Source: Candidatus Azophilus sp.
GTDB taxonomy: Bacteria > Pseudomonadota > Gammaproteobacteria > Pseudomonadales > Azotimanducaceae
Length of the DNA stretch: 64,000 nt
Direction of reading: 5' to 3'
Assembly (NCBI GenBank): GCA_965200465.1
Contig: OZ241358.1
Span: 1,189,872 to 1,253,871, forward strand
Positions 34,843-58,352 of this stretch are shown here, piece after piece (the stretch's first letter is position 1; the number at the start of each line of letters is the position of its first letter). Position numbers and translations under genes: made by a program. The notes beneath the pieces were generated by a model, which saw nothing but the letters and a program-made list of their open reading frames with translations, had not been told where the DNA came from and searched no databases.

Positions 34843-35064
34843 ATGAAGACACCACGGATGTTCTACTTCGAGAAGGAGGATGTGCTGCATCTGGTGATAA
34901 GTGACGAGGAGGAAACCGGCAGCACTGAGCTCAGCCCCAACGTCACCGCGGAACTCAATGCTCAAGGGGACTTGATCGGCGTTGAGATATTGGAGGCGAG
35001 CACCTATGCCTCCTCTTCGTTCTCCACCACCGCAGGCGGTCTGGCGCAGCCGAAATTTGCTTGA
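34843..35064 (+). CDS. DUF2283 domain protein (antitoxin-like); C-terminus supplied by the 52-bp repeat
   Basis: MFYFEKEDVLHLVISDEEE...NAQGDLIGVEILEAS matches the DUF2283 pattern. The last 7 codons plus the stop (LAQPKFA-stop) lie inside the 35041-35092 repeat. Confidence 0.7.
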   Translation: MKTPRMFYFEKEDVLHLVISDEEETGSTELSPNVTAELNAQGDLIGVEILEASTYASSSFSTTAGGLAQPKFA

Positions 35065-35357
35065 AAACCGTCTTGACTGACCGTTTTGCCGCCGCTGCTT
35101 GTGCTCCCAGGGCTGCCGCTAGATGTGCGGCCAGCCTCCATCTCGAAGATTTCCTGCATATCGTCAATCGCCTTTCTAGCCTTGCTGCTGCGCATCAATT
35201 TATCAGCGTCAACATAGAATCCGCCGTTTTTGGTGACATGCACCTCCACCTTTTCTTCGCTTGGCGCCACGTCACCTCTTGGCTGGGCTTTGAACACGGT
35301 CTCCTCCTGCTTGAGTGCTGCGGTTTGAGTATGACAAGGCGAAAAACTCAGGGTCAA
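35004..35357 (-). CDS. Hypothetical small protein (doubtful)
   Basis: TTG start 20 nt downstream of the gcvPB-like stop. The first ~85 aa look protein-like (KVEVHVTKNGGFYVDADKLMRSSKARKAIDDMQEIFEMEA). The C-terminal part reads through the 52-bp repeat and is low complexity, so the native end is unclear. Confidence 0.3.
   Translation of the reverse strand: MTLSFSPCHTQTAALKQEETVFKAQPRGDVAPSEEKVEVHVTKNGGFYVDADKLMRSSKARKAIDDMQEIFEMEAGRTSSGSPGSTSSGGKTVSQDGFQANFGCARPPAVVENEEEA
35041..35092. repeat. 52-bp perfect direct repeat, copy 1
   Basis: ctggcgcagccgaaatttgcttgaaaaccgtcttgactgaccgttttgccgc is identical to 56929-56980. It contains an imperfect hairpin (aaaaccgtc-ttgact-gaccgtttt, one mismatch). 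Confidence 0.9.
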
Positions 35358-35376
35358 GGCTTAGTGTTGGGAGTTC

Positions 35377-36939
35377 TCATCTCAAGGGAGCGGCGCGGGC
35401 GGCCTGCTTGCGCAGGTGGGCCCGCCAAGTCATGGCCCAGCGGTCGGGGTCGTCCAGGGAATCCGCATTGAGCCGATGAATCCCCTGGTTGTGGGGCGCC
35501 GTTTTGACGATTTCCGGGTTGGAGTAGGCTTCGTCGGAAATTTGCCGCAGCACGGCAACCCAGTAATCCACGTCTTCCTTGGACCACATTTCCCCGGCTT
35601 CCGGCGTGAAGGGCTGGGGCACGATCCAGGGTTCGTGGCTCAGCCAGAAGGCGTCGACGCCGAAATCGACCATGCGGTTCTGGACATCGAGCACGCTCAC
35701 GCCGGTGTCTTGATACAGCTGTTCCAGGCTGAAGCGAGTCATCTCCATGCGCCAGCCCTCGGCCTCCGGGTGCGAGCGGGCCACCCCGCGGATTTGCAGC
35801 AGCTGCCGCTCCATGTAGTTGTTGAGCAGCACCGACATGTCCGCGGCCTCGGAGAGGCCCTCTGCGCCCATGGCCCGCAGCCAGGCGTAAGCCTTGACCA
35901 GCTGCTGGACATTGCCCAGATATTCCCGCACCCGGCCAACGCCTTGGGCGGAGGCGGCGCGCAGCGCGAAGCGGGCGCCTTCCCGGACGACTATGGGGCC
36001 CGGCAGATATTCGGCCAGTTCGTCCGTGCAGCCGTAGGCGCCCACCGCCGGGCCGCCTCCGCCCTTGGCCACGCCGAACGTCTTGTGCAGCATGAACATG
36101 CAGGCGTCGAAGCCGAGTTCCCTAGCCCGAATCTTGGTCATCACGCCATTGAAGTTGGCATGATCATAGAAGCACAGGCCGCCGGCCTCATGCACGATTT
36201 CCACCCACTGCTTGATGTGCGGGTTGTAAACCCCCATGTCGTCCGGGTTGTTGATCATCAGCGCGGCGGTGCGCTCCGAAACCGCCGCCTTGAGCGCCTT
36301 CAAGGATGGATAGCCGTCCTTTTCCAGCATCAGGGTCACCACCTCGAACCCGGCGGCGGCGGCGGTGGCGGGGTTGCAGGGATGGGATTGAATGCTGGTG
36401 ATGATCTGATTGCGCTGCTCAAGCTGGCCCCGGGCGGCATGATAGGCCCGGGTGACGCAGGCGTGGGCGTAGGCGGCGTCGGCGCCCCCGGCCGGCTGGA
36501 ACGTGAACCGTTCCATTCCGGACAGTTCGCGCAGCAGCAGATCCAGGCGGTGGATCACCTCCAGAACGCCTTGCAGGGTCGAGCAATCCTGATTCGGGTG
36601 CAGCTCCGCCACTTGCGGACGGGCGCTGAGATCTTCCGTCAGCCGCGGGTTGTACTTCATGGTGCAGGTGCCGAACAGGCTGATGCCCATCATGCCCAGG
36701 GTTTGCTGGGAAAGATGCAGGTAGTGGCGCAGGACGTCCGGCTCCGACATTTCCGGCAGGGCAGGGGGGGCGCCGCGCTGCATGGCTGCCGGAATCAGCT
36801 GCTTGGCGGCGCCCGCCCTGGCCGACGGGTCTTGCTCCGCGTGGGGGAAATGGCAGCCCCGGCGACCGGGCGCCCCGAGTTCCATGACCAGCGGCTCGTC
36901 CCAGATTGGGGCTTGGTATCTGCGCAGCGGAGGGGTCAT
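35377..36939 (-). CDS. gcvPB: Glycine dehydrogenase (aminomethyl-transferring) subunit 2-like PLP enzyme
   Basis: The ATG at 36939 overlaps the subunit-1 stop (ATGA). Typical GcvPB blocks are present: LPEMSEPDVLRHYLHLSQ, HPNQD, HLNLHKTF-like MFMLHKTFGVAKGGGGP and the PLP-Lys region. Confidence 0.8.
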   Translation of the reverse strand: MTPPLRRYQAPIWDEPLVMELGAPGRRGCHFPHAEQDPSARAGAAKQLIPAAMQRGAPPALPEMSEPDVLRHYLHLSQQTLGMMGISLFGTCTMKYNPRLTEDLSARPQVAELHPNQDCSTLQGVLEVIHRLDLLLRELSGMERFTFQPAGGADAAYAHACVTRAYHAARGQLEQRNQIITSIQSHPCNPATAAAAGFEVVTLMLEKDGYPSLKALKAAVSERTAALMINNPDDMGVYNPHIKQWVEIVHEAGGLCFYDHANFNGVMTKIRARELGFDACMFMLHKTFGVAKGGGGPAVGAYGCTDELAEYLPGPIVVREGARFALRAASAQGVGRVREYLGNVQQLVKAYAWLRAMGAEGLSEAADMSVLLNNYMERQLLQIRGVARSHPEAEGWRMEMTRFSLEQLYQDTGVSVLDVQNRMVDFGVDAFWLSHEPWIVPQPFTPEAGEMWSKEDVDYWVAVLRQISDEAYSNPEIVKTAPHNQGIHRLNADSLDDPDRWAMTWRAHLRKQAARAAPLR

Positions 36940-38333
36940 GCTCGGCAAATCTCCTCCAAGCATTCGGCAAGGCGCTGCAGGTCGGCGGCATCATGGAGTT
37001 CGGTCACGCAGTACAGGGCGCTCTGGCCCAGCTCCGGAAAGGCCGCGCTCAAATCCAGGCCGCCGAAAATGCCCCGGTCGAGCAACTGCCGGTTGATCTC
37101 ATGCACACTCTTGCCCGCGGCATCGAAATTGACCCGGAACTCCTTGAAAAATCCCGTGCTGGGGCAGACCGAAACCCCGGGAATCCGCCCAAGCAGAGAG
37201 GCGCCGCTATGCGCCTGCTGCACGATCAGTTCGCCCAGCTCTCGGAACCCCTCGGGGCCCAGCAGCGCCATGTAGGCGGCGCTGGCGATGGCCCACAGAT
37301 AGGTGGAGTTGCCGGTCCAATCCTTGCCGGCTTCCCGGGAACCGTAGGAACTTTGATGCATCAGGGCCATGCCGAAGCCGCGCTCGCCATGGGTGGTTTC
37401 GCCGATGCTCAGCATCAGCGCCGGGCATTCGCCGGCGTAGCGCGGCTCGTCCCGGCTGGCGATGAACCCGCCGAGGCCGCCGCCGCAGTGCATGTGAATG
37501 CCCAGGGGCTGAATCGACCCCACGGCAATATCTGCCCCGTATTGCCCGGGCGGCATCAGCACCCCTAGGGATAGAGGGTCCAGGCCGACGATGGTTTCCG
37601 CGCCTCGATGCCGGGCGGCGTCGGCAATTTGCGCGGCCTGAGACTGAATTTGCCCCAGATAGGAGGGGTTTTCGAAATAGACCGCGGCACATCGATCGGA
37701 CAGTTTCGCCTGCAGGTCGCGCAAGTCAACCAGCCCGCTGGCCGGCTCCACCTCGAACTCCAAGATCTGAATGTGCGAGGCCATTTGCGGCGGTTCGCAA
37801 TAGGTTGCGATGACCGCGCGCCGCTCCGGGTCCAAAAAGCGGGGGATGAGCACTTGGCTGCGCTCGGTCATTCGGGCGGCCATGCGAATGGCATGCCCCG
37901 CCGCGCAGCCCCAGCTGTAAACGGGCAGCGCCACCAAGTCCAGATCCAGCAGTTCGCCCAGCTGGCTGGCGAACTCGAACCAGGCTTGGTTTCTGCCCAA
38001 ATCGGAAGAAGGGGTGCCCCAAACCGGGGTGAGAAATTCGCTGCGCCGGACGATTTCGTCGCAGACTGCGGGCACATGGTGGCGCCAGCAGCCGCCGCCT
38101 AGGAAGTTCAAGGCTTCTTCGCAGGAGGTGTTCCGCCCAAGCAGACCGAGCATGTGGCGGCGCAACTCGACCTCTGAACTCATGGCCGGCGGCAGTTGCA
38201 GCGGCTTCCGGCAGCGGTGGTCGTCGGGAATCTGAATGAACAGCTCCTCGGCCGTCTCGACACCCAAAGCATCCAGCAGTTGCCGGCGCATGGCGGGGAC
38301 CGAATTCGGCATGAAGGGGTGAGGACGCGGCAT
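36936..38333 (-). CDS. gcvPA: Glycine dehydrogenase (aminomethyl-transferring) subunit 1-like protein
   Basis: N-terminus PHPFMPNSVPAMRRQLLDALGVETAEELF and FLGGGCWRHHVPAVCDEI are typical of GcvPA. 465 aa. Confidence 0.8.
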   Translation of the reverse strand: MPRPHPFMPNSVPAMRRQLLDALGVETAEELFIQIPDDHRCRKPLQLPPAMSSEVELRRHMLGLLGRNTSCEEALNFLGGGCWRHHVPAVCDEIVRRSEFLTPVWGTPSSDLGRNQAWFEFASQLGELLDLDLVALPVYSWGCAAGHAIRMAARMTERSQVLIPRFLDPERRAVIATYCEPPQMASHIQILEFEVEPASGLVDLRDLQAKLSDRCAAVYFENPSYLGQIQSQAAQIADAARHRGAETIVGLDPLSLGVLMPPGQYGADIAVGSIQPLGIHMHCGGGLGGFIASRDEPRYAGECPALMLSIGETTHGERGFGMALMHQSSYGSREAGKDWTGNSTYLWAIASAAYMALLGPEGFRELGELIVQQAHSGASLLGRIPGVSVCPSTGFFKEFRVNFDAAGKSVHEINRQLLDRGIFGGLDLSAAFPELGQSALYCVTELHDAADLQRLAECLEEICRA

Positions 38334-38456
38334 GATCGCCTATGCCTCCCATGCTCGATTCAGGAAATTGCGCTGCTTCACTGGCGGGAATATATCATCG
38401 CCGCACCGCAATGGCACTCGCAATCAATGCCTTGGCCAAACGGGACGGGGTGGGCA

Positions 38457-39599
38457 ATGCAGACATATCGGCTCGGCTTGATCGTCAATCCCATTGCCGG
38501 CATGGGAGGCGCGGTGGGGCTCAAGGGCACTGACCGGGAACTGGCGGAGAAGGCGCGAGCGCTCGGCGCCGCGCCCTTGGCCGGCTGCCGCGCCGCCGCC
38601 GCTCTGTCGCAGTTGGCCGACCTTGGCGACCGGCTGCAAGTGCTCACCTGTTCCGGGACAATGGGTGCGGACGCCGCACAGGCGAACGGCTTGCCGGCAC
38701 AGGTGGCGAGCATTGTGCAGGATGGTCCAACCAGCGCCGCCGACACCCAGGCAGCGGCCCTGCGCATCCTCGATCGGCATCCAGATCTGCTGCTGTTTGC
38801 CGGCGGAGACGGCACGGCTCGGGATCTGCTCGAGGTGTTGGGCCAAAGGGTTCCCATGCTGGGCGTGCCCTGCGGCGTGAAGATGCATTCGGCGGCCTTT
38901 GCGGCTTCGCCTCGGGCCGCTGGGGAAGTGGTTCGCAGACACCTGCTGGCCGCCGACCGCGGGGCCCTGCTGCGGGATGCGGAAATTCTGGACCGGGAAG
39001 CCTCCTCCGCAACGCAAAACAGGCTGTCGCCCAAACTGTACGGCATGGTGCGGACCCCCTGCCTGTCCTTGCTGGTGCCGGGCGCCAAGTCTTCCAGCAG
39101 GCCGAGCGAGCAAGCAGCCTTGCAGAGCGCCGTGTGCAGGGCGGTGAAGTTGGCTGGCGACAAGCGCATCACGCTCATCGGTCCCGGCTCGACCATGCAG
39201 CGGGTAAAGCGGGGGCTCGGCTTTGCAGGCGCGCTTTTGGGCGTGGATGCCGCAGCGGAGGGACGCTGCTTGGCCGAAGACCTCGGCGAACGGGATATTC
39301 TCGGCTTGCTGCGCGGTCGGCCGGCGCGCATTCTGCTCAGCGTGGTCGGCGGCCAGGGATTCCTGTTCGGACGGGGCAATCAGCAGTTCAGCCCAAAGGT
39401 CATCCGGGCCGTGGGCCTGGATCAGATCTTTGTGGTGGCCTCCCTGGAAAAACTGGCGGCGCTGCCGGAGCAATGCCTGCTGGTCGATACCGGAGACGAG
39501 CGGCTGGACGATCAGTTGGCGGGCTTTAGGGAAGTAATCGTGAGCGGCGGTCGAACGGTGCTCATGCCGGTGCGCAACGCCGGACGACAAGCGCCGTGA
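38457..39599 (+). CDS. ATP-NAD kinase family protein (AcoX-like)
   Basis: The ATG at 38457 gives MQTYRLGLIVNPIAGMGGAVGLKGTD. GGDGT (FAGGDGTARDLL) is the NAD-kinase/diacylglycerol-kinase-fold signature. The gene is divergent from the gcvPA-like gene. Confidence 0.7.
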   Translation: MQTYRLGLIVNPIAGMGGAVGLKGTDRELAEKARALGAAPLAGCRAAAALSQLADLGDRLQVLTCSGTMGADAAQANGLPAQVASIVQDGPTSAADTQAAALRILDRHPDLLLFAGGDGTARDLLEVLGQRVPMLGVPCGVKMHSAAFAASPRAAGEVVRRHLLAADRGALLRDAEILDREASSATQNRLSPKLYGMVRTPCLSLLVPGAKSSSRPSEQAALQSAVCRAVKLAGDKRITLIGPGSTMQRVKRGLGFAGALLGVDAAAEGRCLAEDLGERDILGLLRGRPARILLSVVGGQGFLFGRGNQQFSPKVIRAVGLDQIFVVASLEKLAALPEQCLLVDTGDERLDDQLAGFREVIVSGGRTVLMPVRNAGRQAP

Positions 39600-40564
39600 C
39601 CAAGGCGTCGCCGCGAGCCGGTCGGGGCTGGACCCATTACTGGCGGGAGGGCTGGGCGGCCTCCTGCGCCCCGGACAGCAAACGCGCGGCCCGGGAAATC
39701 CGCGAACGCTGGATGCAATGGTTCGCCGAGCTGCCGGACGGCAGCCGTGTGCTGGATCTGGGCACGGGCAACGGCATCCTGCTGGCCCATGCGGTGGCGG
39801 CGGCTCAGCAGCAAGGCAAGCGCTTTTATCTGACCGGCGTGGATTTGGCGGACATCGATCCGGTGCGCTGGCTGTCCAGCCTTCCCCCGGGGCTGCGCCG
39901 GGCGCGGTTTCTCGGCGGCGTGGCCGCGGAGCAGCTGCCGCTGGCCGCCGGAGAGTTCGATGCGGCGGTGTCTCAGTACGGCTTGGAATACGCGGCTCTG
40001 GAGCCAGCCTTGGCGGAGGTCGAGCGGATCCTCGCGCCGGGCGGGAAGCTGTTCTGGCTGGCCCATGCCGAAGACAGTTCCGTGGTGCGGCAGAACCGCA
40101 GCCAAGGTGAGCAGGCGGCCTACTTGCTGGCGCCGGGCAGCCCGCTGCATGCCATGCGGCGGTTCGTGGCCGAACGGCGCAGGGGCAGGGTGCCGAAGCG
40201 CACCGCCAAGGAGTTGGCTGCTGCGCTGGCCAAGGCCGAGCAATACTGCAACGACCGCCCGTCGGCCGCGGTGGTGCGTGAAGTCTGCACCGTCATCGCC
40301 GAAACGGCCCAGCGCTGGCAGGCATACCGCTTGGAGGACTTGGACCGCATGCTGAGCGACAGCCGCGCCCGGCTCCAGGCGCATCGCCAGAGAATGAGCG
40401 ATCTGGCGGCGGCCGTCCTGTCGCCCGTGCGGCTTGCAGCGGTTCGCCGCCGCTTGCAGCCGCCGGCTTGGCAAGAGGCGTCCATGGCGGAATTGCGGGT
40501 CGGCGCCTCCGCCAGCTCGGTGGGCCTGCTCATCGCCGCCCAACGTGCCTTCCCGCCTAGCTGA
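39596..40564 (+). CDS. Class I SAM-dependent methyltransferase
   Basis: GTG start overlaps the upstream stop (GTGA). Motif I is VLDLGTGNGILLAH, and an acidic post-I residue is followed by DAAVSQYGLEY. Confidence 0.7.
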   Translation: MTKASPRAGRGWTHYWREGWAASCAPDSKRAAREIRERWMQWFAELPDGSRVLDLGTGNGILLAHAVAAAQQQGKRFYLTGVDLADIDPVRWLSSLPPGLRRARFLGGVAAEQLPLAAGEFDAAVSQYGLEYAALEPALAEVERILAPGGKLFWLAHAEDSSVVRQNRSQGEQAAYLLAPGSPLHAMRRFVAERRRGRVPKRTAKELAAALAKAEQYCNDRPSAAVVREVCTVIAETAQRWQAYRLEDLDRMLSDSRARLQAHRQRMSDLAAAVLSPVRLAAVRRRLQPPAWQEASMAELRVGASASSVGLLIAAQRAFPPS

Positions 40565-40698
40565 CCGGGCCATCCTTCGGCCTTGGCCGGCGCCGCGCCC
40601 GGCCAATCTGCCGTGCTTCGTAAATACAGCAGAAACGCCATGCAGATTATTGAAATTAAAGCATTTTTTGGAACGGTTCGTTTGACTGAATATGCCGG

Positions 40699-41814
40699 CT
40701 AGCCTGGGCGGCGTCTCAGAAAGAACGCATAGGATTCCGGCAGGATCGCATGCGGATCCGGGTGGTCCAGGGCTTGCGCGGCGTGGAAGACGAAGTTTGG
40801 ATCGTCCAGCAGTTGCCGGCCGATGGCGACCAGATCCGCGCTGCCGGAAGCGATCGCCGCGTTCGCCTGACGCGGCTCGATGATCAGCCCCACGGCCATG
40901 GTCGGGATGCCGGCGCCTTGGCGAATGGCCTTGGCGTAGGGCACCAAGTAGCCCGGAGACTGCTCCCGGAGCGCACGCCCGGACGGGCCGACGATGCCCC
41001 CGGAGGAGCAGTCGATCAGATCCACGCCCTTGGCCTGCAGGGCCTTCGCCAAGGCCACCGAATCCTCAATGGTCGCACCTTCGGGGAATCCGTCCACGGC
41101 GGAAGTGCGGAACAGCAGCGGCATGGAATCCGGCAGAACCGAGCGCACCGCCTCCGCCACGGCCAAGGGAAAGCGCATGCGGTCGCGCAGTTCCGGCCCG
41201 CCCCAACGGTCCTCCCGCTGATTGGACAGCGGCGAAAAGAAGCTGTTCAGCAAATAACCATGAGCGCCGTGAATTTCGATGAAGTCAAAGCCGGCTTGCA
41301 GGGCGCGGCGCGCCGCCAAGACGAAGGCTTCGATCATGCGCTGAATTTCCGCCTCTCTCATGGCCTTGGGCGCGGGCCAGCCCGGGGCCATGGCGATGGC
41401 GCTGGGCGCGATGGTTTCCCATGCCTGATCGGGTGCGCATTGCGCCAGCGGGGCGGCCCCGTCCAAGGGCGCCGCGGCGCTGCCCTTGCGCCCGGAGTGG
41501 CCGATCTGAATGCCTGCTGGAATCCCTTGGCGGTGGTAGATGGCGGCGATCTTGGCAAGCCCTTTGATGTGGCTGTCCAAATAGATGCCCAAGCACTTGG
41601 GCGTGATGCGTCCTTTGCGGGTGACCGCGGTGGCTTCGACGCTGGCCGCGCCCACCCCCGCCAGAGAAAACCGCCCGTGGTGCGCGAAATGCCAATCCAC
41701 GACATGGCCATCTTCCGCGCAGTACTGGCACATGGGCGTGACGAACACCCGATTGCGGAACTCCAGGCCGCGCAGGCGGAAGGGCCGGAACAGCGCCGGC
41801 AGGGATGCGTCCAA
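40699..41814 (-). CDS. NADH:flavin oxidoreductase / NADH oxidase (Old Yellow Enzyme family)
   Basis: LFRPFRLRGLEFRNRVFVTPMCQY, HSGRKGS, GFDFIEIHGAHGYLLNSFFSPLSNQR and GRQLLDDPNF are canonical OYE blocks. Confidence 0.85.
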   Translation of the reverse strand: MDASLPALFRPFRLRGLEFRNRVFVTPMCQYCAEDGHVVDWHFAHHGRFSLAGVGAASVEATAVTRKGRITPKCLGIYLDSHIKGLAKIAAIYHRQGIPAGIQIGHSGRKGSAAAPLDGAAPLAQCAPDQAWETIAPSAIAMAPGWPAPKAMREAEIQRMIEAFVLAARRALQAGFDFIEIHGAHGYLLNSFFSPLSNQREDRWGGPELRDRMRFPLAVAEAVRSVLPDSMPLLFRTSAVDGFPEGATIEDSVALAKALQAKGVDLIDCSSGGIVGPSGRALREQSPGYLVPYAKAIRQGAGIPTMAVGLIIEPRQANAAIASGSADLVAIGRQLLDDPNFVFHAAQALDHPDPHAILPESYAFFLRRRPG

Positions 41815-41821
41815 GGCGAGT

Positions 41822-42802: not shown

Positions 42803-42960
42803 TCGTCCGCCCTCCCGTGCCGCCAAGCGCTTGCCGATGCCGTTGGGATTCGGCGCCGATGGCGCCCTTGCTGTCGCCGTCGGCCCGATGCGCCTTGAAC
42901 CTTAGCACAGAGCGCGAAAAGCAATCCAGTTCGGCGAGGGCTTGCGCAGGGGCATGGGCC

Positions 42961-44175: not shown

Positions 44176-44198
44176 ACAGGCGGAATCGCCGCCGCCAG

Positions 44199-48014: not shown

Positions 48015-48043
48015 TTGACTTTCCGTGGGCGAGCGTCTATTAA
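48015..48043 (+). promoter_or_regulatory. Putative sigma-70 promoter for the TonB-dependent receptor gene
   Basis: TTGACT, a 17-nt spacer, then TATTAA, about 70 nt upstream of the ATG at 48113 in the divergent intergenic region. Pattern match only. Confidence 0.4.
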
Positions 48044-48112
48044 CTGTCGCACAAGGGCGATCGTGGCTAGGGGGTGGCCCAATTCTAAGGATACGGCTTG
48101 GGAGGACATCCA

Positions 48113-51037
48113 ATGACTATTGCACCGGCTCGCAATCCCTTGCGCCGCGCCATACGCCGTGCGCTAATCGCCGGCCCGGTGGCGGCCGTGGCCAGCCAGG
48201 TCCCCGGCGCGTTCGCCCAGCAGGAAGGCGCGGAGGGAATCGCCATTGAAGAAGTTGTGGTGACCGGCTCCCGGCTGGTTCGCCAGGACTTCACCGCCAT
48301 CAGCCCCATCGCCACCGTGGATCAGGACGTCATCCGCCAATCCGGCAACGTCACCTTGGAGGAAACGCTCAACATGTATCCGCAGCTGAACCCGGATACC
48401 ACCAGCGCCTCCAATCAAAGCGGCGGCGATGGAGTGCTGGCGCCGGATTTGCGCGGCTTGGGCTCGGTTCGCACCCTGGTGCTGGTGGACGGCAAGCGCT
48501 TCATTCCCGCCAGCGTCACCGGCCTCTCGGACATGGGCATCATCCCGGACATGCTCATCGAGCGGGTGGAGATCGCCACCGGGGGCGCTTCCGCGGTGTA
48601 CGGCTCCGACGCCATCGCCGGAGCAATCAACTTCATTCTCGCCGACGACTACGAGGGCGCCGACATCCGCTATCAGTGGGGCCAGGCCGGGGAAGGGGAC
48701 GCCACCACCAGCAAGGTGGACCTGATCCTAGGCGCCAACGTCGCCGAAGGCGAAGGCAACATCACCCTGCATGCCTCCTTCACTCAGCGCGACCCGGTGT
48801 TCATGGAAAACCGGACCTTTTCCCAGCAGCCGTGGCTGGCCGACAGTTCGGGGAACCTGAATGAATTCGGCTCCGGCAACATTCCGGGCGGCAAGATTTT
48901 CATCCCCTCGGCGGATTTCGGGCAGATCGCCGGCCTGGACCTAGTGAGCGCCGCAGCCGACTGCCCAGGCCCCATTCAAGGCATCAGGTTTGGCGAAAAC
49001 AGCCAGCCCCTGCCGTTCTGCCGGCCCACGGACCAGTTCAACTACGCGGCCACCAACTACATCATGCGCCCCTTGGAGCGCTGGCAGCTGGGTGTGCTCG
49101 GCGAGTATGAGATTGCCGAAGGCGTGGAACTCTACGCCCAAGGCTTCTACACCAAGAAGGAAAATGAATGGCAGCAGGCCGCCTTGGCGGTGGCGCCCAC
49201 CAGCTCCGGCGCCCCCAACGGCAGCCTGCTGCTGCCCAATGCGGACACCAACCCCTTGTTCCCAGCGCCTCTGCGGGAATTCTTCGCGGCCAACCGCAGC
49301 TATTTCGACCCGGACGGCGATGGCGTGTTCCAAACCTTCGGCAACGGCCGGCGATTTTTGGAGTTCGGTCCCCGCAACGCGCACATTCTGCACGAGTCCT
49401 TCGGCGTCACAGGGGGACTGCGCGGCGCCATTCAACTGGCCAACCGAACTTGGAACTGGGACGGCTTCTATCAGTATCAGCGCTCGGATGTGGATCAGAC
49501 TCGGGTCGGGCTTCTGTCCCGCTCCCGAACCACCCTGGGGCTGGATGTGGTGTTGGGGGCCGATGGCCAGCCCCAATGCCGGGTGGACCTGCTGGGCTGC
49601 GTGCCAGTCAATGTCTATGGCACCAACACCCTCACGCCCGAGATGGTCGATTTCCTGAGCGTGACCACCGGCCGCGCGGACTGGTTCAAGCGCCAAGTGG
49701 TGGGCGGTTCCATGGCTGGGGACCTGTTCGACTTGCCGGCCGGCCCCGTCTCCACCGCCTTCGGCTTCGAATGGCGGGACGAGTCCTATCAGACGGTGCC
49801 GGACGAGGTCTCCGCCTCCGGCGACTTGGGCGGTGTGCCCCCGGTCAGGAACGCCGGCGGCTACGACCTTTGGGAGTTTTACGGGGAAGTGCGCATTCCC
49901 ATCATCGAAACTCTGGCGGTGGAGGGGGCCATTCGCTACTCGGACTACTCCACCATCGGCGGGGTCACCACTTGGCGGGCTGGTCTGGATTGGTCGCCAG
50001 TGGATTGGGCCCGGGGCCGCTTCTCCATCAGCCGGGCCATTCGGGCGCCCAATCTGGACGAACTGTTCGCGCCGCCCAATCAGAGCTTCATCGGCGGGGA
50101 GGACCCTTGCGTGGTGGACAACAACCCCACCACGGCAATCAAGGATCTGTGCCGGCAGCAGGGGGTCCCGGCCCGCTTCATCGACGATCTGCAAGTGGGC
50201 GCCAGCCAAGGATGGAGCCAGTTTTCCGGCGGCAACCTGAACCTGAACGAGGAGAAGTCCGACACCTACACGGTGGGCATGGTGGCGAGCCCGCCCTTTG
50301 CTCCAGGGCTGACGCTGTCCCTCGACTACTGGCAGATCGAAGTGGAGGGCGCCATCAGCAGCGTCAATTCCCAAGCGCTGGTGAATTCCTGCTTCGACCT
50401 GCTCGACAGCAGCTCCCCCCAATGCCAAGCCATCACTCGGGACGCCCTCGGCAACATCGACCAGGTGAACGCGCCCCTGCTGAACCTGCAAACCCGGAAA
50501 GGCACGGGCATCGATCTGCAAGCCAGCTACGCCATGGACTTGCCGGAATCGTTCGGCCTCGCGGGGAACGGGGCGGAACTGGCCCTGCGCTGGATCTCCA
50601 CTTGGCAGACCAAGGACAGCACGGTGATTCTGGAGGGGCAGCCGGCGGTGGACTGCGCCGGCTATCTAGGCGGCGATTGTTCGGCCAACTTCATTCGCGC
50701 CACGCCGGATTTCCGCGGGCTGTTCAGCGCCGTCTATTCCAGCGGCTTGGCCAGCGTACGTTCGGATGTGGAGCTGATAGGCGGCTTCGGCTTGGCCGAA
50801 GGCGCCTATCCAAACAACAATGTCCCCATCGGCTCCGAAGCCTACTGGGACATTTCCGGCAGCTACACCTTCATGGGCTATGTGGAAGTGTTCGCCGGCG
50901 TCAGCAACGTGCTGGACCGGCAGCCGCCCGTTCTCGGCTTCCGTGCCGGGGGCGACTCGAACACCCAGTCGCAGCTGTACGACACGGTGGGGCGGCGCTA
51001 TTTCATCGGCACCACGGTGAAGCTGGGCGCCCGCTAG
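48113..51037 (+). CDS. TonB-dependent receptor
   Basis: The ATG at 48113 follows RBS gggagga. It has a signal peptide, a plug (EEVVVTGSRLVRQDFTAISPIATV, RVEIATGGASAVYGSDAIAGAINF) and a long barrel. Confidence 0.9.
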   Translation: MTIAPARNPLRRAIRRALIAGPVAAVASQVPGAFAQQEGAEGIAIEEVVVTGSRLVRQDFTAISPIATVDQDVIRQSGNVTLEETLNMYPQLNPDTTSASNQSGGDGVLAPDLRGLGSVRTLVLVDGKRFIPASVTGLSDMGIIPDMLIERVEIATGGASAVYGSDAIAGAINFILADDYEGADIRYQWGQAGEGDATTSKVDLILGANVAEGEGNITLHASFTQRDPVFMENRTFSQQPWLADSSGNLNEFGSGNIPGGKIFIPSADFGQIAGLDLVSAAADCPGPIQGIRFGENSQPLPFCRPTDQFNYAATNYIMRPLERWQLGVLGEYEIAEGVELYAQGFYTKKENEWQQAALAVAPTSSGAPNGSLLLPNADTNPLFPAPLREFFAANRSYFDPDGDGVFQTFGNGRRFLEFGPRNAHILHESFGVTGGLRGAIQLANRTWNWDGFYQYQRSDVDQTRVGLLSRSRTTLGLDVVLGADGQPQCRVDLLGCVPVNVYGTNTLTPEMVDFLSVTTGRADWFKRQVVGGSMAGDLFDLPAGPVSTAFGFEWRDESYQTVPDEVSASGDLGGVPPVRNAGGYDLWEFYGEVRIPIIETLAVEGAIRYSDYSTIGGVTTWRAGLDWSPVDWARGRFSISRAIRAPNLDELFAPPNQSFIGGEDPCVVDNNPTTAIKDLCRQQGVPARFIDDLQVGASQGWSQFSGGNLNLNEEKSDTYTVGMVASPPFAPGLTLSLDYWQIEVEGAISSVNSQALVNSCFDLLDSSSPQCQAITRDALGNIDQVNAPLLNLQTRKGTGIDLQASYAMDLPESFGLAGNGAELALRWISTWQTKDSTVILEGQPAVDCAGYLGGDCSANFIRATPDFRGLFSAVYSSGLASVRSDVELIGGFGLAEGAYPNNNVPIGSEAYWDISGSYTFMGYVEVFAGVSNVLDRQPPVLGFRAGGDSNTQSQLYDTVGRRYFIGTTVKLGAR

Positions 51038-51062
51038 CGGAAGCATACGGAAGGTTGACCCC

Positions 51063-52772
51063 ATGAAACAGCAATTGACCCGAAGCATCCGATTCGCTCT
51101 GGTTGCCGCAGCCCTCGCTTGCGCCTTGGGGCCGTTCGCCGGTCCAGCCCGAGGCGCCGCGCTGGAGGGCATGCCGGAAGGGCAGGGCGGCCATCAGGAT
51201 TTGGTGGCGCTGTTCCAGGAATTTCTGGAATGGAAAGACCCGGCGCGCGCCCGGGGCGATGTGCCCAATCGCGACATCGCCGGCGCGGCCACCGAGATCT
51301 ATCCCGACTACGGCCCGGAAGCCGTGGCCGCTCGCCGGGCGCAGATGCGGGAATATCAGGGCCGCCTTGCCGACATGGCGGTGGCCAGCTGGCCCTTGGC
51401 GCAGCAAGTGGACTATCTGGCGGTGCGCTCCCGCTTCGACCAGCATCAATTCACTTTGGACATTTCCCGCCCCTGGTCTCGGGACCCGGGCTTCTATGTG
51501 GATCAAATGCTGCGCGTGACCTTTGCCGAACTGCCCCTTGCCGCCGATGAAACCGCGGCGCTGCAAGCCCAGTTGCAGGCCATATCGCTGCTTGTGGAGC
51601 AGGCCATGCGCAATTTGACGGAAGTGGCGGCGGACTATGCGGACTTGGCCATCTTCAACCTGAGCAATGCCGACGGGGTGGGGCATGGCTTCCCCTACCG
51701 GGCGGTTCCGCCGCCGGGCGTGATTGGCTGGTACGCGGATTTTCTGGAGCGAGCGGCGCAGCAGCAGCCCGCGCTGCAAGAGGACATCGCCGCCGCCAAG
51801 GCCTCCGTGGAGGCATTCCGGGACTGGCTGACCGAGGGTCGCGCCGGCATGACAGGGCAGGCCGGGGTCGGCGAGGACAACTTCGACTGGTACTTGAAGC
51901 ACGTCAAGCTGATGCCCTACACGGCGGATCAGATCGTTACCCTGGGCTTGCGGGAGCTGGATCGCCTGTGGAGCGTTTACGCCTTGGAGCAACATCGCAA
52001 CCGCGCCCTGCCGGCCATTGAAATCTCCAAATCCGAGGAGGAATACGCTGCCCGCATCGCCGCCACGGATCAGCGCATCCGCACCTTTCTGGTGGAGAAC
52101 GACGTCATCAGCATCCCGGACTACATTCAGGAACTGGACACCAACGTGCCCTGGATCGTTCGCCCTGGCGGGCCGAATTTCTGGGAGCAGGTGCAGTACC
52201 GCAATCCCACGCCCGATCATCTGCATGCGGTCATTCCCGGCCACCGCTTCGACGGCTTGGTGGAGCGCAACAACCCCCATCCCATTCGCGGCAAGATCAC
52301 CAGCGGCGCCCGCACCGAGGGATGGGCCGTTTATCTGGAGGAGGGGATGATGAATGCCGGGGTGATCGACGACTTGCCCCGGGTGCGGGAACTGATCTAT
52401 GTGTTCGGCATCTTCCGCGCCGCTCGAGTGCCGGCGGATGTCTGGCTGCAAACCAATGAAATGACCGTGAACGAAGTGGTCGATTGGTGGCGGGAGCGAA
52501 CGCCTTGGCTGGATGTGGACGTGGCCCGAGTCGATGCGGAAATCTACTTGCGCCGTCCGCCGGGCTACGGGCTGGGCTACACAGTGGGCATGCTGCAAAT
52601 GCAGCAGCTGCTGGCCGACCGCAAGCGTCAGCTGGGGGATGACTTCAATCTCAAGGCGTTCCACGATCAGTTCATGGCCGCCGGCCGGCTGCCCATTTCC
52701 CTGATCCGCTGGGAAATGACCGGGCTGGAGGACGAGGCCCGCGACCTCTGGCGCAGGGAACCTCTGAACTAG
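51063..52772 (+). CDS. DUF885 domain protein (secreted)
   Basis: Signal peptide present. PGHRFDG ... EGWAVYLEE resembles the DUF885 metallopeptidase-like core. Family recall only. Confidence 0.7.
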   Translation: MKQQLTRSIRFALVAAALACALGPFAGPARGAALEGMPEGQGGHQDLVALFQEFLEWKDPARARGDVPNRDIAGAATEIYPDYGPEAVAARRAQMREYQGRLADMAVASWPLAQQVDYLAVRSRFDQHQFTLDISRPWSRDPGFYVDQMLRVTFAELPLAADETAALQAQLQAISLLVEQAMRNLTEVAADYADLAIFNLSNADGVGHGFPYRAVPPPGVIGWYADFLERAAQQQPALQEDIAAAKASVEAFRDWLTEGRAGMTGQAGVGEDNFDWYLKHVKLMPYTADQIVTLGLRELDRLWSVYALEQHRNRALPAIEISKSEEEYAARIAATDQRIRTFLVENDVISIPDYIQELDTNVPWIVRPGGPNFWEQVQYRNPTPDHLHAVIPGHRFDGLVERNNPHPIRGKITSGARTEGWAVYLEEGMMNAGVIDDLPRVRELIYVFGIFRAARVPADVWLQTNEMTVNEVVDWWRERTPWLDVDVARVDAEIYLRRPPGYGLGYTVGMLQMQQLLADRKRQLGDDFNLKAFHDQFMAAGRLPISLIRWEMTGLEDEARDLWRREPLN

Positions 52773-53692
52773 GTCGCCGACCGGGCTTGCGGCAGGGCCA
52801 GTTCCGGCTGGCAGGCCCTCCTGACCCAGCGGGCCACTTCAGCGTGGCTGCCGAACCAGACGCCGCCTTTCTCCTTCGCCCGCTCGAGCAGCCGTTCCAG
52901 AATCCAGATGCGCGAGCGATAGCCGATGACGAACGGGTGCATGACCAGCTGAAACAGCCCGCGTTCCTCCCAGGCCGCATCCAGTTCCCGCTTGAAGATG
53001 CCGAACACTTCCTCCGGCGTGCTCCAGGGCCGGGTTGCCGGTGCCCGGTTGAACATCAGATAGACCGCGTCGTCCCGCAGCCACTCCACGGGAACTTCCA
53101 CGACGCCAGTGGGTGCTCCGTCCAGCAGCAATTCGTAGCAGGCCTCGTCCGCCATCATGGAACTGTCGTATTCCAAGCCGAGTTCCGCAACGATGGCGAT
53201 GGTGTTCGGGCTCAAATCCCAATTTGCCGAACGAAAGCCCACTGGCGCAGCGCCCGTCCGCTCCGCCAGCAGGTCTCGGGCACGAAGCGCCAAATCCCGT
53301 TCGGTGGCGGCATCCAGCTTGGAGTTGTCTTCGTGCATCCAGCCGTGCAGGCCAACCTCGTGCCCGTCGGCGAGGATGCGCCGAGTTTCCTCGGGGTCGA
53401 TCATGGCGCAGACCGCCGGCACGAAGAAGCTGGCCCGCACTTCATGGCGGCGCAACGCAGCCAAGATGCGCGGCACGCCAACCCGGCGGCCGAATTCCCC
53501 CCAGGCCAACCGGCCCACTGCTCGGCCGCCGCGGCCCAGTTCGTAGGCTTCATGGTCGCAGTCGAAGGACAGTGCCGCCGCGCAGCGGGCGCCGCCCGGC
53601 CATGCCGGGGGACGCAAGGCGCGGCCGGCGCGGACCCGGCCCACCAGGTCGCGCCAGTCGGGGGAGATTTCCCCTTGTTCCGCCTTGCCCAT
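52769..53692 (-). CDS. Polysaccharide deacetylase family (NodB-fold) protein
   Basis: The ATG at 53692 follows RBS ggagga. LSFDCDHE, SFFVPA and GHEVGLHGWMHE match NodB-homology motifs. Confidence 0.75.
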   Translation of the reverse strand: MGKAEQGEISPDWRDLVGRVRAGRALRPPAWPGGARCAAALSFDCDHEAYELGRGGRAVGRLAWGEFGRRVGVPRILAALRRHEVRASFFVPAVCAMIDPEETRRILADGHEVGLHGWMHEDNSKLDAATERDLALRARDLLAERTGAAPVGFRSANWDLSPNTIAIVAELGLEYDSSMMADEACYELLLDGAPTGVVEVPVEWLRDDAVYLMFNRAPATRPWSTPEEVFGIFKRELDAAWEERGLFQLVMHPFVIGYRSRIWILERLLERAKEKGGVWFGSHAEVARWVRRACQPELALPQARSAT

Positions 53693-53859
53693 GATTCCTC
53701 CGCTGCCCGTCGAGCAATGGGACAGTGCTTGGCCGCTGCATAGCCTAACGCATGGAACTGCGGCCAACCCGGAGATTTTCGCGCTTTCGCACAGGAAGGC
53801 CGCGCCATGCGTGAGGATTGCAGTCGCGCCGCAAGCGCCGCACCGTCGCCAGAGTTTCG

Positions 53860-53887
53860 TTGACAGGGGCGCGACGGCGGGCACAAT
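53860..53887 (+). promoter_or_regulatory. Putative sigma-70 promoter for the SDR/SnoaL/oxidoreductase genes
   Basis: TTGACA, a 16-nt spacer, then CACAAT, about 35 nt upstream of the ATG at 53923. Pattern match only. Confidence 0.3.
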
Positions 53888-53922
53888 GGAAAAACTCGGA
53901 GGATTGAACAGTTAAGGAAGCA

Positions 53923-54705
53923 ATGACCGCTGGGCATCTGCAAGGCAAGGTCATCCTGCTGACTGGCGCATCCCAGGGAATCGGGGCCGCCGCGGCCGGG
54001 GCGCTCGTCCAAGAAGGGGCCGCGCTGATCGCGCATCATCAAGGACGGCCTGGGGACTTGCAGGGTGCTCAAGCGGCGCTTCGGGATGCGCCGCCGGAGC
54101 GCAAGCATTTCGTGGCCGGGAATTTCGAGCGCAACGAAGAGGTGGAGCGCGTCTGGCGAAGCGCCTTGAACTGGCGGGGCCGCCTGGACGCGCTGGTGCT
54201 GAACGCCGCCATGATGGAGGCGGCGGGCGGCATCGACGACAGCGACGAGCATTGGGACGCCTCTTGGCGTCGCCATTACCAAGTGAATGTGCAGGCCCCC
54301 GCCCGTCTCATGCGGGGCGCGGTTCGGCATTTCCGCAGCAGCGGCGGCGGCGTCATCGTTCTGATGTCCAGTTGGGTGGCGCAGCGCGGCGTCACCAATC
54401 CGCAGATGATTGCCTACGCCGCCTCCAAAGGCGCCGTCAAGGCCTTGGCGCAATCCATCGCCCGGGGCTATGCCAAGGACGGCATCCGCACCTACATCAT
54501 CGCCCCGGGAATCGTGCGCACCAAGATGTCCTTGGACTTCGCGGCCTTGCAGGGAGGCGAGGCGGCGGTGACCGAAACCCTGGCCATGCGCGAATGGGTG
54601 CCGCCCGCCGAGCTGGGGGAACTGATCGCCTTCCTGGTGCGGGGCAAGGTTCGTCACCTGTCCGGCGCCACCCTGGACGTGAACGGCGCCACTTACATCC
54701 GCTGA
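53923..54705 (+). CDS. SDR family oxidoreductase
   Basis: TGASQGIGAAA, NAAM and YAASKGA (YxxxK). Paralogue of the 47184-47951 product. Confidence 0.85.
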   Translation: MTAGHLQGKVILLTGASQGIGAAAAGALVQEGAALIAHHQGRPGDLQGAQAALRDAPPERKHFVAGNFERNEEVERVWRSALNWRGRLDALVLNAAMMEAAGGIDDSDEHWDASWRRHYQVNVQAPARLMRGAVRHFRSSGGGVIVLMSSWVAQRGVTNPQMIAYAASKGAVKALAQSIARGYAKDGIRTYIIAPGIVRTKMSLDFAALQGGEAAVTETLAMREWVPPAELGELIAFLVRGKVRHLSGATLDVNGATYIR

Positions 54706-54729
54706 GGCGCCGCGGTGGGGGATCGGATC

Positions 54730-55212
54730 ATGCAGGAGTTGCTGGACCGACAGGCCATTGCCGAGGCGCTGCACGAATACTGCGCCGCCTTGGACTCCAT
54801 GGACCTGCCCCGGCTGGCGGCGCTGTTCACCAAGGATTGCGTGGTGGACTATGGCCCGGAGGACTGGCTGCAAAGCCGCGGCGCCGCGGCTTTGGAAAAG
54901 TCTTTGCAGCGGATGTGGCGCTGGTCGCGCACCTCCCATCATCTCTCCAATGTGCAGATCGACTTCCGGGGCAAAGACCAAGCCTTGGCGCGCAGCTACG
55001 TCCACGCCTGGCACGAGCGCGGCGACGGCGCCACGGCCACGGTTTTTGGCCAGTACCATGATCGGTTCGTGCGCTTGCCGGCCGGTTGGCGCATCGCGGA
55101 GCGGCGCATGCTGATGAACGGCAATTCCGCGGGCTTCGCAGTGAACCTCAACCGTTTGCGGCGCCAACCGCCGCCAAGGGGTTGGTCGCCGCCGCGCGGC
55201 GCTCCAACTTAA
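54730..55212 (+). CDS. SnoaL-like / NTF2-fold protein
   Basis: MQELLDRQAIAEALHEYCAALDSMDLPRLAALFTKDCVVDYG is the typical SnoaL_4 opening. About 160 aa. Confidence 0.65.
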   Translation: MQELLDRQAIAEALHEYCAALDSMDLPRLAALFTKDCVVDYGPEDWLQSRGAAALEKSLQRMWRWSRTSHHLSNVQIDFRGKDQALARSYVHAWHERGDGATATVFGQYHDRFVRLPAGWRIAERRMLMNGNSAGFAVNLNRLRRQPPPRGWSPPRGAPT

Positions 55213-55227
55213 GGCGCGGCGCAAGCC

Positions 55228-56952
55228 ATGCAATCCCGTCGAGCTCCGCCGGAGGACGCCATAAGGATTTTCTTCGAAGGTCGGGAAATTCGCTGCCGTC
55301 CGGGGCTGTCGCTGGCCGCCGCCCTGACCCAAGCGGGCGAACTGCGGCTTCGGGATGCCGGGCCCGGCGGAGTGCGCGGCCTGTTCTGCGGCATGGGCGT
55401 CTGCCAGGAGTGCCGGGTTGATCTGGACGACCGCCAAGGCGTTCGCGCCTGCATGTGCTTGGCGGAGGACGGCCAGCGCCTGTCTCGGCATCGGCGTCTC
55501 CGTCCCCGGAATGCGCAAGGCTTCCATGTCGGCGGCAACGGCGATTGCCAGCCCTGGGCGCCGGACATTCTGGTGATTGGCGCGGGGCCGGGCGGACTGG
55601 CCGCGGCCGCGCTCGCCGCGGAAGCCGGCGCCGATGTGGTGCTGGTGGATGATCGCACCCATCCCGGCGGCCAGTTCTACAAGCAGCCGGCCTCTCCCCG
55701 CCATGTGCCTGCCTCTCTCGCCGGAGATCCGCAGTTCGCGGCCGGTCGGGCGCTCATCGAACGGGCCGAGCGCTCCGGCGCCAAGCGGCTGGCCGCCACG
55801 GAAATCTGGGGTGCCTTCCCGCCCAACGAATTCGCCGCCGCGCACCTTGACGGCAGTTGTATGTTCAAGCCGAAGCGAACGATCGTCGCCACCGGCGCCT
55901 TCGAGCGAGGGCTGCCGCTGCCGGGTTGGACCCTGCCCGGCGCCATGACCACTGGTGCGGCGCAAACCTTGCTGCGCGCGCATGGCGTGCTGCCGGGCCG
56001 GCGCGTGCTGGTGGCCGGCAATGGGCCGCTGAACCTGCAAGTGGCCTTGGAATTGAAGCGGGCGGGCGCGCAGGTGGCGGCCGTGGCGGAACTCTCGGCG
56101 GCGCCTGGCCCAGCCGCGCTCGGCCAAGCTTGGCGGATGCTGCGCAATGCGCCCGGCCTGACCTTCAAGGGCTTGGCTTGCTTGGCCGGGTTGCGTTGGG
56201 CGGGGGTGCCGGTGCTGCATCAGCGCATTCTGACCGCGGTGGAGAAGGGTGGCACCGGCCTGATCGCCTGGCTTGGCCGAATCGGCCCCGAGGGGCCGAC
56301 CAAGGAGGTCCGCTTCGAGGTCGATGCCGTGTGCATGGGGTATGGCTTTCAGCCCAGCAATGAACTGCTCAAGTGCCTTGGCTGCCGCCACCGCTACGAT
56401 GAACGCTTCGGCCAGCTGGTCGTTGCACGAAGCGCCGACTGCGAAACCAGCCTGCCCGGCATCTACGCCATCGGCGACTGCTGCGGCCTGGGCGGGGCGC
56501 CGGCGGCGATTCGGGAGGGCATTCTGGCCGCCACGGCGGCGGTCCGCTCCCTAGGCCTGAATCTTGCGCCCCGCATGCTCGCAGAACGCCGCGCCGCGCT
56601 GCGGGAACTGCGCCGGCAGCGGGCCTTTCAGTCCGCGCTCTGGCAGCTGTTCGCCGCGCCGCGCTTTCAGACCGAATTGGCCGAACCGGATACGCCGATC
56701 TGCCGCTGCGAAAACGTTTGCCTCGGCGACATCGAAGAAGCGCTGAACCGGGGCGATGCATCCATCGGCATGCTCAAGCGGCGCACCCGTTTGGGCATGG
56801 GCCTCTGCCAAGGCCGCTACTGCGCCCCGCTGGCGGCGGCCATGATTGCCCGGCGAACAGGCCATCCCTTGGACGAATTTTCCTTTTTCGCCCCCCGCAT
56901 CCCCCTTCGGCCCATCGCCATCGGCCGGCTGGCGCAGCCGAAATTTGCTTGA
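55228..56952 (+). CDS. FAD/NAD(P)-binding oxidoreductase with N-terminal 2Fe-2S and C-terminal BFD-like 2Fe-2S domains (opine-oxidase subunit A / HcnAB-like)
   Basis: N-terminus IFFEGREIRCRPGLSLAAAL...FCGMGVCQECRV. The dinucleotide fold is ILVIGAGPGGLAAAALAA with a second one at VLVAGNGPLNLQVA. The C-terminus has CRCENVCLGDI...GMGLCQGRYC. The last 7 codons plus the stop lie in the 52-bp repeat. Confidence 0.8.
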   Translation: MQSRRAPPEDAIRIFFEGREIRCRPGLSLAAALTQAGELRLRDAGPGGVRGLFCGMGVCQECRVDLDDRQGVRACMCLAEDGQRLSRHRRLRPRNAQGFHVGGNGDCQPWAPDILVIGAGPGGLAAAALAAEAGADVVLVDDRTHPGGQFYKQPASPRHVPASLAGDPQFAAGRALIERAERSGAKRLAATEIWGAFPPNEFAAAHLDGSCMFKPKRTIVATGAFERGLPLPGWTLPGAMTTGAAQTLLRAHGVLPGRRVLVAGNGPLNLQVALELKRAGAQVAAVAELSAAPGPAALGQAWRMLRNAPGLTFKGLACLAGLRWAGVPVLHQRILTAVEKGGTGLIAWLGRIGPEGPTKEVRFEVDAVCMGYGFQPSNELLKCLGCRHRYDERFGQLVVARSADCETSLPGIYAIGDCCGLGGAPAAIREGILAATAAVRSLGLNLAPRMLAERRAALRELRRQRAFQSALWQLFAAPRFQTELAEPDTPICRCENVCLGDIEEALNRGDASIGMLKRRTRLGMGLCQGRYCAPLAAAMIARRTGHPLDEFSFFAPRIPLRPIAIGRLAQPKFA

Positions 56953-56980
56953 AAACCGTCTTGACTGACCGTTTTGCCGC
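56929..56980. repeat. 52-bp perfect direct repeat, copy 2
   Basis: Identical to 35041-35092 in the same orientation, 21,888 bp downstream. Degenerate similarity continues for about 12 nt on the right side. Confidence 0.9.
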
Positions 56981-58346: not shown

Positions 58347-58352
58347 GCCCAG

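Follow-up and report, generated by a model that had tools for sequence, protein, structure and literature searches.

Attachment (att) sites of genomic islands or integrative and conjugative elements (ICEs) at the 3' end of a gene are direct repeats of tens of base pairs, which surround a multi-gene block and restore the stop codon of the gene. Spontaneous amplicons of cat genes in Acinetobacter baylyi, with join points formed by illegitimate recombination, were reportedly described by Reams and Neidle in 2003/2004. Known as well are microhomology-mediated template switching and templated filler DNA, as in events of the microhomology-mediated break-induced replication or fork stalling and template switching type (MMBIR/FoSTeS), and homology-facilitated plus double illegitimate recombination in naturally transformable bacteria. 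The term for such recombination events was taken from PMC6382021. In bacterial catabolic-gene amplicons of 12 to 290 kb, the duplication joints were located between sites with 0 to 5 bp identity (PMC9997567). A catabolic segment of 21.9 kb, comparable in size to the amplicons of A. baylyi (PMC9997567), is bracketed by the direct repeat of a 52-mer, CTGGCGCAGCCGAAATTTGCTTGAAAACCGTCTTGACTGACCGTTTTGCCGC, in a 64-kb stretch of the chromosome of Candidatus Azophilus sp. (“the window,” meaning this whole stretch as it was analyzed). The 52-mer is probably the scar of an illegitimate, non-site-specific recombination in a rearrangement-prone zone and not a functional repeat; the phenomenon is an ordinary one.

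Both copies of the 52-mer in the window are on the plus strand, copy 1 at positions 35041 to 35092 and copy 2 at positions 56929 to 56980, with 0 mismatches between them, and a 52-bp match did not result from shuffled sequence (0 of 100 shuffles). The first-pass annotation of this DNA, which had reported this perfect direct repeat, was in this point reproduced by exact searches of the window and the genome. In the whole genome (3,927,415 bp in a single contig), a search allowing up to 3 mismatches yielded the same two copies and no others, and a whole-genome search with blastn-short revealed no third or partial copy beyond chance matches of 14- to 16-mers. Two open reading frames (ORFs), the 73-aa ORF of a DUF2283 protein (34843 to 35064) and that of a 574-aa oxidoreductase (55228 to 56952), share one reading frame inside the repeat, where both finish with LAQPKFA and a stop codon, which had been noticed before and was evident again from the ORF translations. 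A weaker similarity beyond both edges had also been claimed. Four of the 6 nt left of the repeat are indeed alike between the copies; local alignment of the 60-nt flanks of both copies gave shuffle p values of 0.93 on the left and 0.28 on the right side. The flank similarity is at chance level, so that the claim was dropped and the edges of the repeat are sharp. Both repeat junctions were recovered in independent metagenome scaffolds, one of which, with 143.6 kb, contains both copies at a distance of 21,888 bp. The repeat is therefore no assembly artefact. A plasmid search with copy 1 plus the adjoining segment S (see below) as query gave no match.

The composition of the repeat is explained by its second copy, where a left part, CTGGCGCAGCCGAA, stands directly before ATTTGCTTGAAAACC of a 38-nt region from upstream of an operon for a Rieske oxygenase. 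The features around copy 2 are the following:

55228 to 56952, plus strand: gene for the 574-aa FAD/2Fe-2S oxidoreductase

56929 to 56980, plus strand: copy 2 of the repeat, with the last 7 codons and the stop codon of the oxidoreductase gene, followed by the upstream half of the promoter for the Rieske operon

56929 to 56942, plus strand: first ~14 nt of copy 2, which stem from the 3' end of the oxidoreductase gene as judged by DNA homology to sister species

56943 to 56980, plus strand: the 38 nt on the right side of copy 2, which belong natively to the DNA before the Rieske operon and include GAAAACCGTCTTGACTGACCGTTT, a 24-nt motif comprising the −35 box

56961 to 56989, plus strand: predicted sigma-70-like promoter of the Rieske operon (promoter scan: TTGACT, 17 nt, TATGCT)

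57030 to 61379, plus strand: Rieske oxygenase operon (alpha subunit, Rieske ferredoxin, SDR, ThuA-like protein, luciferase-like monooxygenase; Pfam)

Homology to the upstream region of the Rieske operon begins at position 56943 in the related genome G013, at 56950 in G003, and at 56951 in G014, three genomes in which the left contexts of the operon differ. When all 24 other species of the genus were compared with positions 56300 to 57600, the match started either inside the repeat (56943 to 56953) or at the Rieske start codon, and an oxidoreductase gene upstream of the Rieske operon was present in 0 of these 24 species. The 24-nt motif GAAAACCGTCTTGACTGACCGTTT is identical in G013, G003, and G014. 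Among 185,579 species genomes, it was found only in these three others, all of them metagenome-assembled genomes (MAGs) of uncultured Pseudomonadales, once in each and always before the same Rieske operon; it was not found in the metagenome contigs of JGI. An alignment of the upstream regions revealed that the TTGACT and TATGCT hexamers were both kept in 10 of 10 readable relatives. Copy 2 exhibits the attributes of a sigma-70-type promoter, namely, both hexamers, a spacing within the range of 16 to 18 nt, and conservation in front of an orthologous operon. The −10 sequence TATGCT begins beyond the repeat, which ends within the spacer, 3 nt short of the −10 box. Because of the homology, the promoter conserved in the relatives, and the end of the repeat within the spacer, the right 38 nt can be regarded as native to the promoter/operator region of the Rieske operon. 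Similar to a sigma-70 promoter with an overlapping operator, copy 2 has the arrangement TTGACT-17 nt-TATGCT and a 24-nt imperfect palindrome or direct repeat (ACCGT-N8-ACCGT) at the −35 position. In contrast to such a system, copy 1 contains only the −35 half, followed by TGCTTG at the place of a −10 box.

The left part originates from the other side of the junction. In three sister-species contigs, DNA homology to the catabolic block (89 to 94% identity) stops at positions 56933 to 56937, which is 5 to 9 nt into the repeat. Look-ups of the exact proteins of the oxidoreductase and of GcvP2, encoded at the other end of the block, gave no match, and relatives from protein clusters were used instead. 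While the oxidoreductase ends here with IGRLAQPKFA, four sister orthologues end with IGRLAGTEA, IGRLAED, IGQLAEAKD, and IGPLSDGSA. The first three of these ends indicate, on the basis of the aligned sequences, that the C terminus is native up to ...IGRLA. The assumption of the first-pass annotation that this C terminus was native stood up to this residue. The last five residues, QPKFA, are unlike every one of the four sister orthologues. On the DNA level, CTGGCG (Leu-Ala) is common to the gene end here and in the sister genes, and the following CAGCCGAA agrees with GAGGCGAA of the oxidoreductase tail in the sister-species contig L065 at 6 of 8 positions, in frame. Copy 2 thus joins ~14 nt from the 3' end of the oxidoreductase gene to 38 nt from upstream of the Rieske operon, two sequences that were not linked ancestrally.

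At the other end of the catabolic block, copy 1 is located within a patchwork of short pieces:

34843 to 35007, plus strand: native part (codons 1 to 55) of a truncated gene for a DUF2283 antitoxin-like protein (Pfam PF10049)

35008 to 35040, plus strand: 33-nt filler that separates copy 1 from the truncated DUF2283 gene, no source detected

35041 to 35092, plus strand: copy 1 of the repeat, a relic that gives the last 7 codons and the stop codon to the truncated DUF2283 ORF

35093 to 35393, minus strand: segment S, 301 bp, species-specific, with a small gene of a family of ~70 to 74 aa, the 3' end of which abuts copy 1

Homology of the DUF2283 gene to the intact gene pair in G013 breaks off at position 35007. 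An intact relative of the DUF2283 protein with 78 aa (P0275) has identical residues 1 to 55 and is divergent thereafter; it is not encoded in this genome, and only relatives with at most 76% identity were present in the JGI contigs. The DUF4258-like partner upstream of the DUF2283 gene is a degenerate stub. The 73-aa ORF is probably chimeric and dead. No significant match to the 33-nt filler was found in the genome or in the intergenic regions of relatives, nor any similarity of the left flank of copy 1 to the Rieske upstream regions of G014, G003, and G013 (p values of 0.64 to 0.97). On the other side of copy 1, segment S was found in conspecific contigs only. A search of 1.84 billion representatives yielded 4 homologues of its small protein, of which the best has 74 aa, 62% identity, and an E value of 1e-18, and the alignment of this homologue extends to the boundary between S and the repeat. 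In total, three breakpoints are located inside 85 nt. A −10 box is absent after copy 1, TGCTTG being present in its position, and the scan predicted no plus-strand promoter there; a promoter-like site in segment S is on the minus strand (35357 to 35328). The gene in S itself (35093 to 35357, minus strand) belongs to a very rare family of ~59 to 74 aa with the motif KVHVTxNGGxYVDAxEL.

The two copies also differ in their fate in the population, as judged from conspecific metagenome contigs with 98 to 99.3% identity to the window. Copy 2 was invariant in 12 of 12 of these contigs. Copy 1 was intact in L043 and over the 40 repeat nt present in L045. In L042 and L046, one A was missing from it (GAAACC instead of GAAAACC), and in L044 it contained the same 1-nt deletion plus a change of TTGACT to TTGATT in the −35 box. 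This means that 3 of the 4 contigs spanning the full copy 1 carry a deletion in the left arm of the motif, and that one of the three is also changed at −35. A further variant of copy 1, with a Pro-to-Leu exchange in the left part, is represented by the protein P0274. In scaffold_9, copy 1 is mutated and copy 2 intact, so that the copies within one scaffold are not homogenised, which speaks against gene conversion or a constraint on copy 1. Copy 1 diverges at about the same rate as the adjoining segment S (97 to 99.7% identity) and is decaying. Recombination between the copies, which the first-pass annotation had considered, may in principle delete or amplify the block; block-deleted or amplified forms were not present in 17 contigs.

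Also relevant is the position of the bracketed DNA in the related genomes, which involves three larger features:

28549 to 30012, minus strand: TPR/TonB_C gene, which in G014 lies directly beside the Rieske operon and is transcribed away from it

30013 to 35007, no strand assigned: accessory islet with lower GC content, comprising a 331-aa protein of a multi-copy family, a 1098-aa Type ISP-like restriction-modification (R-M) enzyme, and toxin-antitoxin debris

35394 to 56937, no strand assigned: catabolic/transport block of 21.5 kb, from the gcvP-like pair to the FAD/2Fe-2S oxidoreductase (Pfam annotation; homology limits at 35394/35395 and 56933 to 56937)

In G014, only ~250 to 500 bp separate the TPR/TonB gene and the Rieske operon, which are divergently oriented there as well, and the accessory islet is missing between them. 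The region from 30013 to 56942 (~27 kb) is therefore extra DNA in the lineage studied here. The Rieske operon itself is kept at 82 to 93% in the relatives but with four different left-hand neighbours, among them clpP in the G013-like genomes and another one in G003. Because of these different neighbours, the site just upstream of the Rieske promoter is a recurrent breakpoint that was used in at least four lineages. In the G013-like contigs L060 to L064 and in L015, the Rieske operon follows straight after clpP, ~90 bp downstream of tig-clpP, and homology starts in the same range (56943).

The catabolic block contains, in this order, the split gcvP-like pair and genes for an NAD-kinase-like protein, a methyltransferase, OYE, DHDPS, DAO, an amino-acid ABC transporter, an SDR, a TonB-dependent receptor, a DUF885 protein, a deacetylase, a second SDR, SnoaL, and the oxidoreductase. 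The ORFs in 35093 to 56928 display metabolic or transport Pfam domains or represent the gene in S; none of them encodes an integrase, recombinase, or transposase, and unannotated gaps of more than ~300 bp do not exist between the copies. The GC content of the block equals that of the genome. The block is syntenic in G017 and G014 with 66 to 78% identity, at other chromosomal positions. In the sister-species contigs (89 to 94% identity), it has different flanks, LigAB-ALDH-QueF on the gcvP side and either msrA-NUDIX-pyrG-kdsA-eno or UDPG-dehydrogenase on the oxidoreductase side. These flanking genes lie far from the block in this genome, in which the block is single-copy, as it is in all conspecific contigs.

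As a side aspect, gcvP2 and the oxidoreductase gene, which face outward at the two ends of the block, possess species-specific C-terminal tails (35377 to 35394 and 56935 to 56952). GcvP2 ends with RAAPLR here and with R, VSGTSGKAPGEGAPEEPPRM, or RARN elsewhere, and homology decays at the last few codons. The 27 nt around the gcvP2 stop codon (35367 to 35393) exhibit 92.6% identity to the genome sites 1118057 to 1118083 and 3012813 to 3012839 and may be a small repeated motif. In the contig L039, a NAD-kinase-like gene is joined to the oxidoreductase end and the Rieske gene (1 to 910 and 910 to 2521), with 90% identity of the first half to 38284 to 39127 and 99% of the second to 56794 to 58405. 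This is probably a chimeric assembly of two species, although a real recombinant is possible, and the contig was not used as evidence.

According to the favoured explanation, the lineage of this species acquired about 27 kb between the TPR/TonB gene and the Rieske operon, composed of the islet with defence and toxin-antitoxin genes, the small-gene segment S, and the 21.5-kb block that is found elsewhere in related species. Copy 2 is taken as the working junction, in which the oxidoreductase end (~14 nt) is joined to the 38 nt of Rieske upstream sequence with the probable operator motif and the −35 box. It would double as a gene end and as half of a promoter and would be under purifying selection. 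Copy 1 is most likely a secondary, functionless duplicate of this junction, remaining on the opposite side of the block, which by accident gave a new tail and a stop codon to the truncated DUF2283 ORF and is now drifting. The chimeric composition of copy 2, the insertion in comparison with G014, the missing recombinase, the lack of further copies in the genome, and the decay of copy 1 are demonstrated by the data, while the direction from copy 2 to copy 1 and the exact way of copying were deduced from them. That copy 2 was the source and copy 1 the secondary copy seems the better supposition, because the repeated unit spans a junction that was created at copy 2. The proposal of the first-pass annotation that copy 1 might be a displaced duplicate of the oxidoreductase gene end became the most likely one in the light of the sister tails.

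Two ways could have led from copy 2 to copy 1. Copy 1 may be the joint of a head-to-tail duplication of segment S, the block, and the 52 nt, the upstream unit of which was later lost or replaced. As in joints of tandem duplications, the sequence at 35092/35093 reads like the end of a unit followed by the start of a unit, from the Rieske upstream sequence into S plus the block, and there is essentially no homology at the breakpoint here, in agreement with the 0 to 5 bp reported there (PMC9997567). Different from such joints, only 52 nt of the supposed upstream unit are left, which requires that the rest was deleted or replaced afterwards; a strain carrying two units was not found, and the state is fixed in a natural population and not selected in the laboratory. 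Of the two hallmarks of a tandem duplication, a novel junction with low homology was present, but not two copies of the segment in head-to-tail orientation. Alternatively, copy 1 and the 33-nt piece may be templated filler that was copied in during the repair of a break. Template-switch or filler events agree with the stacking of short pieces (33 nt and 52 nt) from different sources at one breakpoint, one of them copied from 21.9 kb away, and with a microhomology, CTGGCG, at one edge. On the other hand, 52 nt are long for bacterial filler DNA, and a template for the 33-nt piece was not found.

The direction of copying could also have been the opposite. In case of a target-site duplication, copy 1 would represent the original Rieske upstream sequence, and segment S plus the block would have been inserted into the spacer of the promoter by microhomology-mediated recombination, either by template switching or by double illegitimate recombination. 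The return joint would have used CTGGCG, 52 nt behind the point of departure, so that 52 nt were copied again, the intact promoter was restored at copy 2, and the oxidoreductase gene took its last codons from the target. This needs a single event, and it could use a perfect match of 6 nt (10 of 12 when extended) between the oxidoreductase end ATCGGCCGGCTGGCG and the flank of copy 1, GCAGGCGGTCTGGCG; moreover, the QPKFA tail is unlike 3 of the 4 sister tails, and GCTGCGG upstream of the operon in G014 is weakly like GCAGCCG. Nevertheless, a target-site duplication is rather unlikely: no similarity could be detected between the left flank of copy 1 and the sequence upstream of the Rieske operon in any relative, CAGCCGAA resembles the L065 tail GAGGCGAA in frame, and neither the 33-nt piece nor the truncated DUF2283 gene beside copy 1 is promoter-region DNA. 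Illegitimate insertion, moreover, normally deletes target DNA and does not duplicate 52 nt. Copy 1 as a secondary scar has to face objections of its own. Only 6 nt (CTGGCG) of the left part are securely derived from the oxidoreductase gene, the next 8 nt depend on the 6-of-8 match to one of four sister genes, and the same stretch is also weakly like the upstream sequence of G014, with 5 of 7 and overall 10 of 18 positions when the alignment was read by eye. A duplication followed by a nearly complete deletion takes more events than a single insertion, and a genome with a full second unit or the state before the event was not found among those examined, so that the order of events is inferred. 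The perfect identity of both copies in this genome could mean recent conversion, although the other strains argue otherwise. The evidence separating a secondary copy from a target duplication is thin, because 6 of 8 nt favour the one and the weak resemblance to the G014 upstream sequence favours the other.

The remaining explanations assign a function to the repeat. The first-pass annotation had considered it as attL and attR, with the 3' end of the oxidoreductase gene as the target of an integrative element that may be excised as a 21.9-kb circle, which agrees with direct repeats of att length (52 bp) around a gene block, an overlap with a gene 3' end, and a restored stop codon. The comparison ends there, and the att interpretation, which did not survive, is highly improbable. 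A recombinase gene is not located between the repeats, the supposed target gene sits inside the bracketed block, the block has the GC content of the genome and is a conserved syntenic cluster ancestral to the genus, the repeat is a chimera of a gene end and a foreign promoter, one copy is decaying, and a plasmid match does not exist; instead of an empty site, the relatives have the right-hand 38 nt alone, located before the Rieske operon and with other neighbours. Even less credible, and close to being dismissed, is a small dispersed hairpin of the repetitive extragenic palindromic (REP) or miniature inverted-repeat transposable element (MITE) type or a shared intrinsic terminator, which had been the second suggestion. 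The imperfect palindrome aaaaccgtc-ttgact-gaccgtttt on which it was based does exist, but the stem is AU-rich, contains an internal mismatch, and is weak with ~−8 kcal/mol (−8.2), its loop is the conserved −35 box, and it is neither GC-rich nor followed by a U-tract. The fold of the whole 52-mer is not different from those of shuffled sequences (z = −0.78), so that the proposed check of the RNA fold gave no indication of the stable stem-loop of an intrinsic terminator. A terminator scan yielded one marginal hairpin, CGGCTGGCGCAGCCG plus AAATTTGCTT, which is present at copy 2 only and uses 3 nt beyond the repeat, and none at copy 1. Instead of many scattered copies, the search in this genome and its relatives, as also proposed before, gave two copies here and the right 38 nt only in the relatives, with the motif of three other species always before the same operon; the copy number refuted a dispersed REP/MITE element. 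Finally, copy 1 may have been kept for a function. It could titrate the regulator of the Rieske operon, as a decoy or second operator, or it could, alternatively or in addition, be a RecA substrate in a repeat pair serving as a handle for reversible amplification or loss of the block. Copy 1 contains the whole 24-nt conserved motif, all conspecific contigs keep it, and 52 bp exceed the minimal length for RecA recombination in Escherichia coli. Such a role is very unlikely, however, considering the left-arm deletion in 3 of the 4 full-span contigs with the −35 change in one, another variant in the left part, a variation that fits the 1 to 3% neutral divergence of the adjoining S, and the lack of any deleted or amplified form in the 17 contigs. 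If the repeat were such a handle, precise loss of the block would leave the Rieske promoter intact, and the copy number of a catabolic cluster would be affected in an uncultured lineage of the Pseudomonadales, but nothing found points to this.

For annotation, this means that a long perfect direct repeat around a block of genes and over a gene end can mimic the att site of an island, while comparative data lead to a junction scar in a plasticity zone. The repeat marks the probable promoter/operator of an uncharacterised Rieske operon, a chimeric DUF2283 ORF, and an oxidoreductase gene with five deviant last codons.

Some observations concern the neighbourhood. To the right of the Rieske operon, positions 61380 to 63167 are a variable islet hotspot, which contains here an 84-aa ORF and a DUF4143/AAA_14 ATPase, and, among the contigs compared (L033 to L037, L058), is empty in one and encodes in some conspecific ones a dynamin-like protein of 689 aa plus proteins of 216 aa and 1019 aa, a candidate defence system. 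The 331-aa protein of the islet on the left side (29985 to 30980) has at least 12 paralogues in this genome with 30 to 40% identity, scattered and some in tandem, and belongs to an expanded family without a Pfam match. A second gene for a Type ISP-like R-M enzyme (G000:C1:1402129-1405368) is located ~180 kb away and exhibits 73% DNA identity to positions 31180 to 34476, compared to 80% for the copy in G003.

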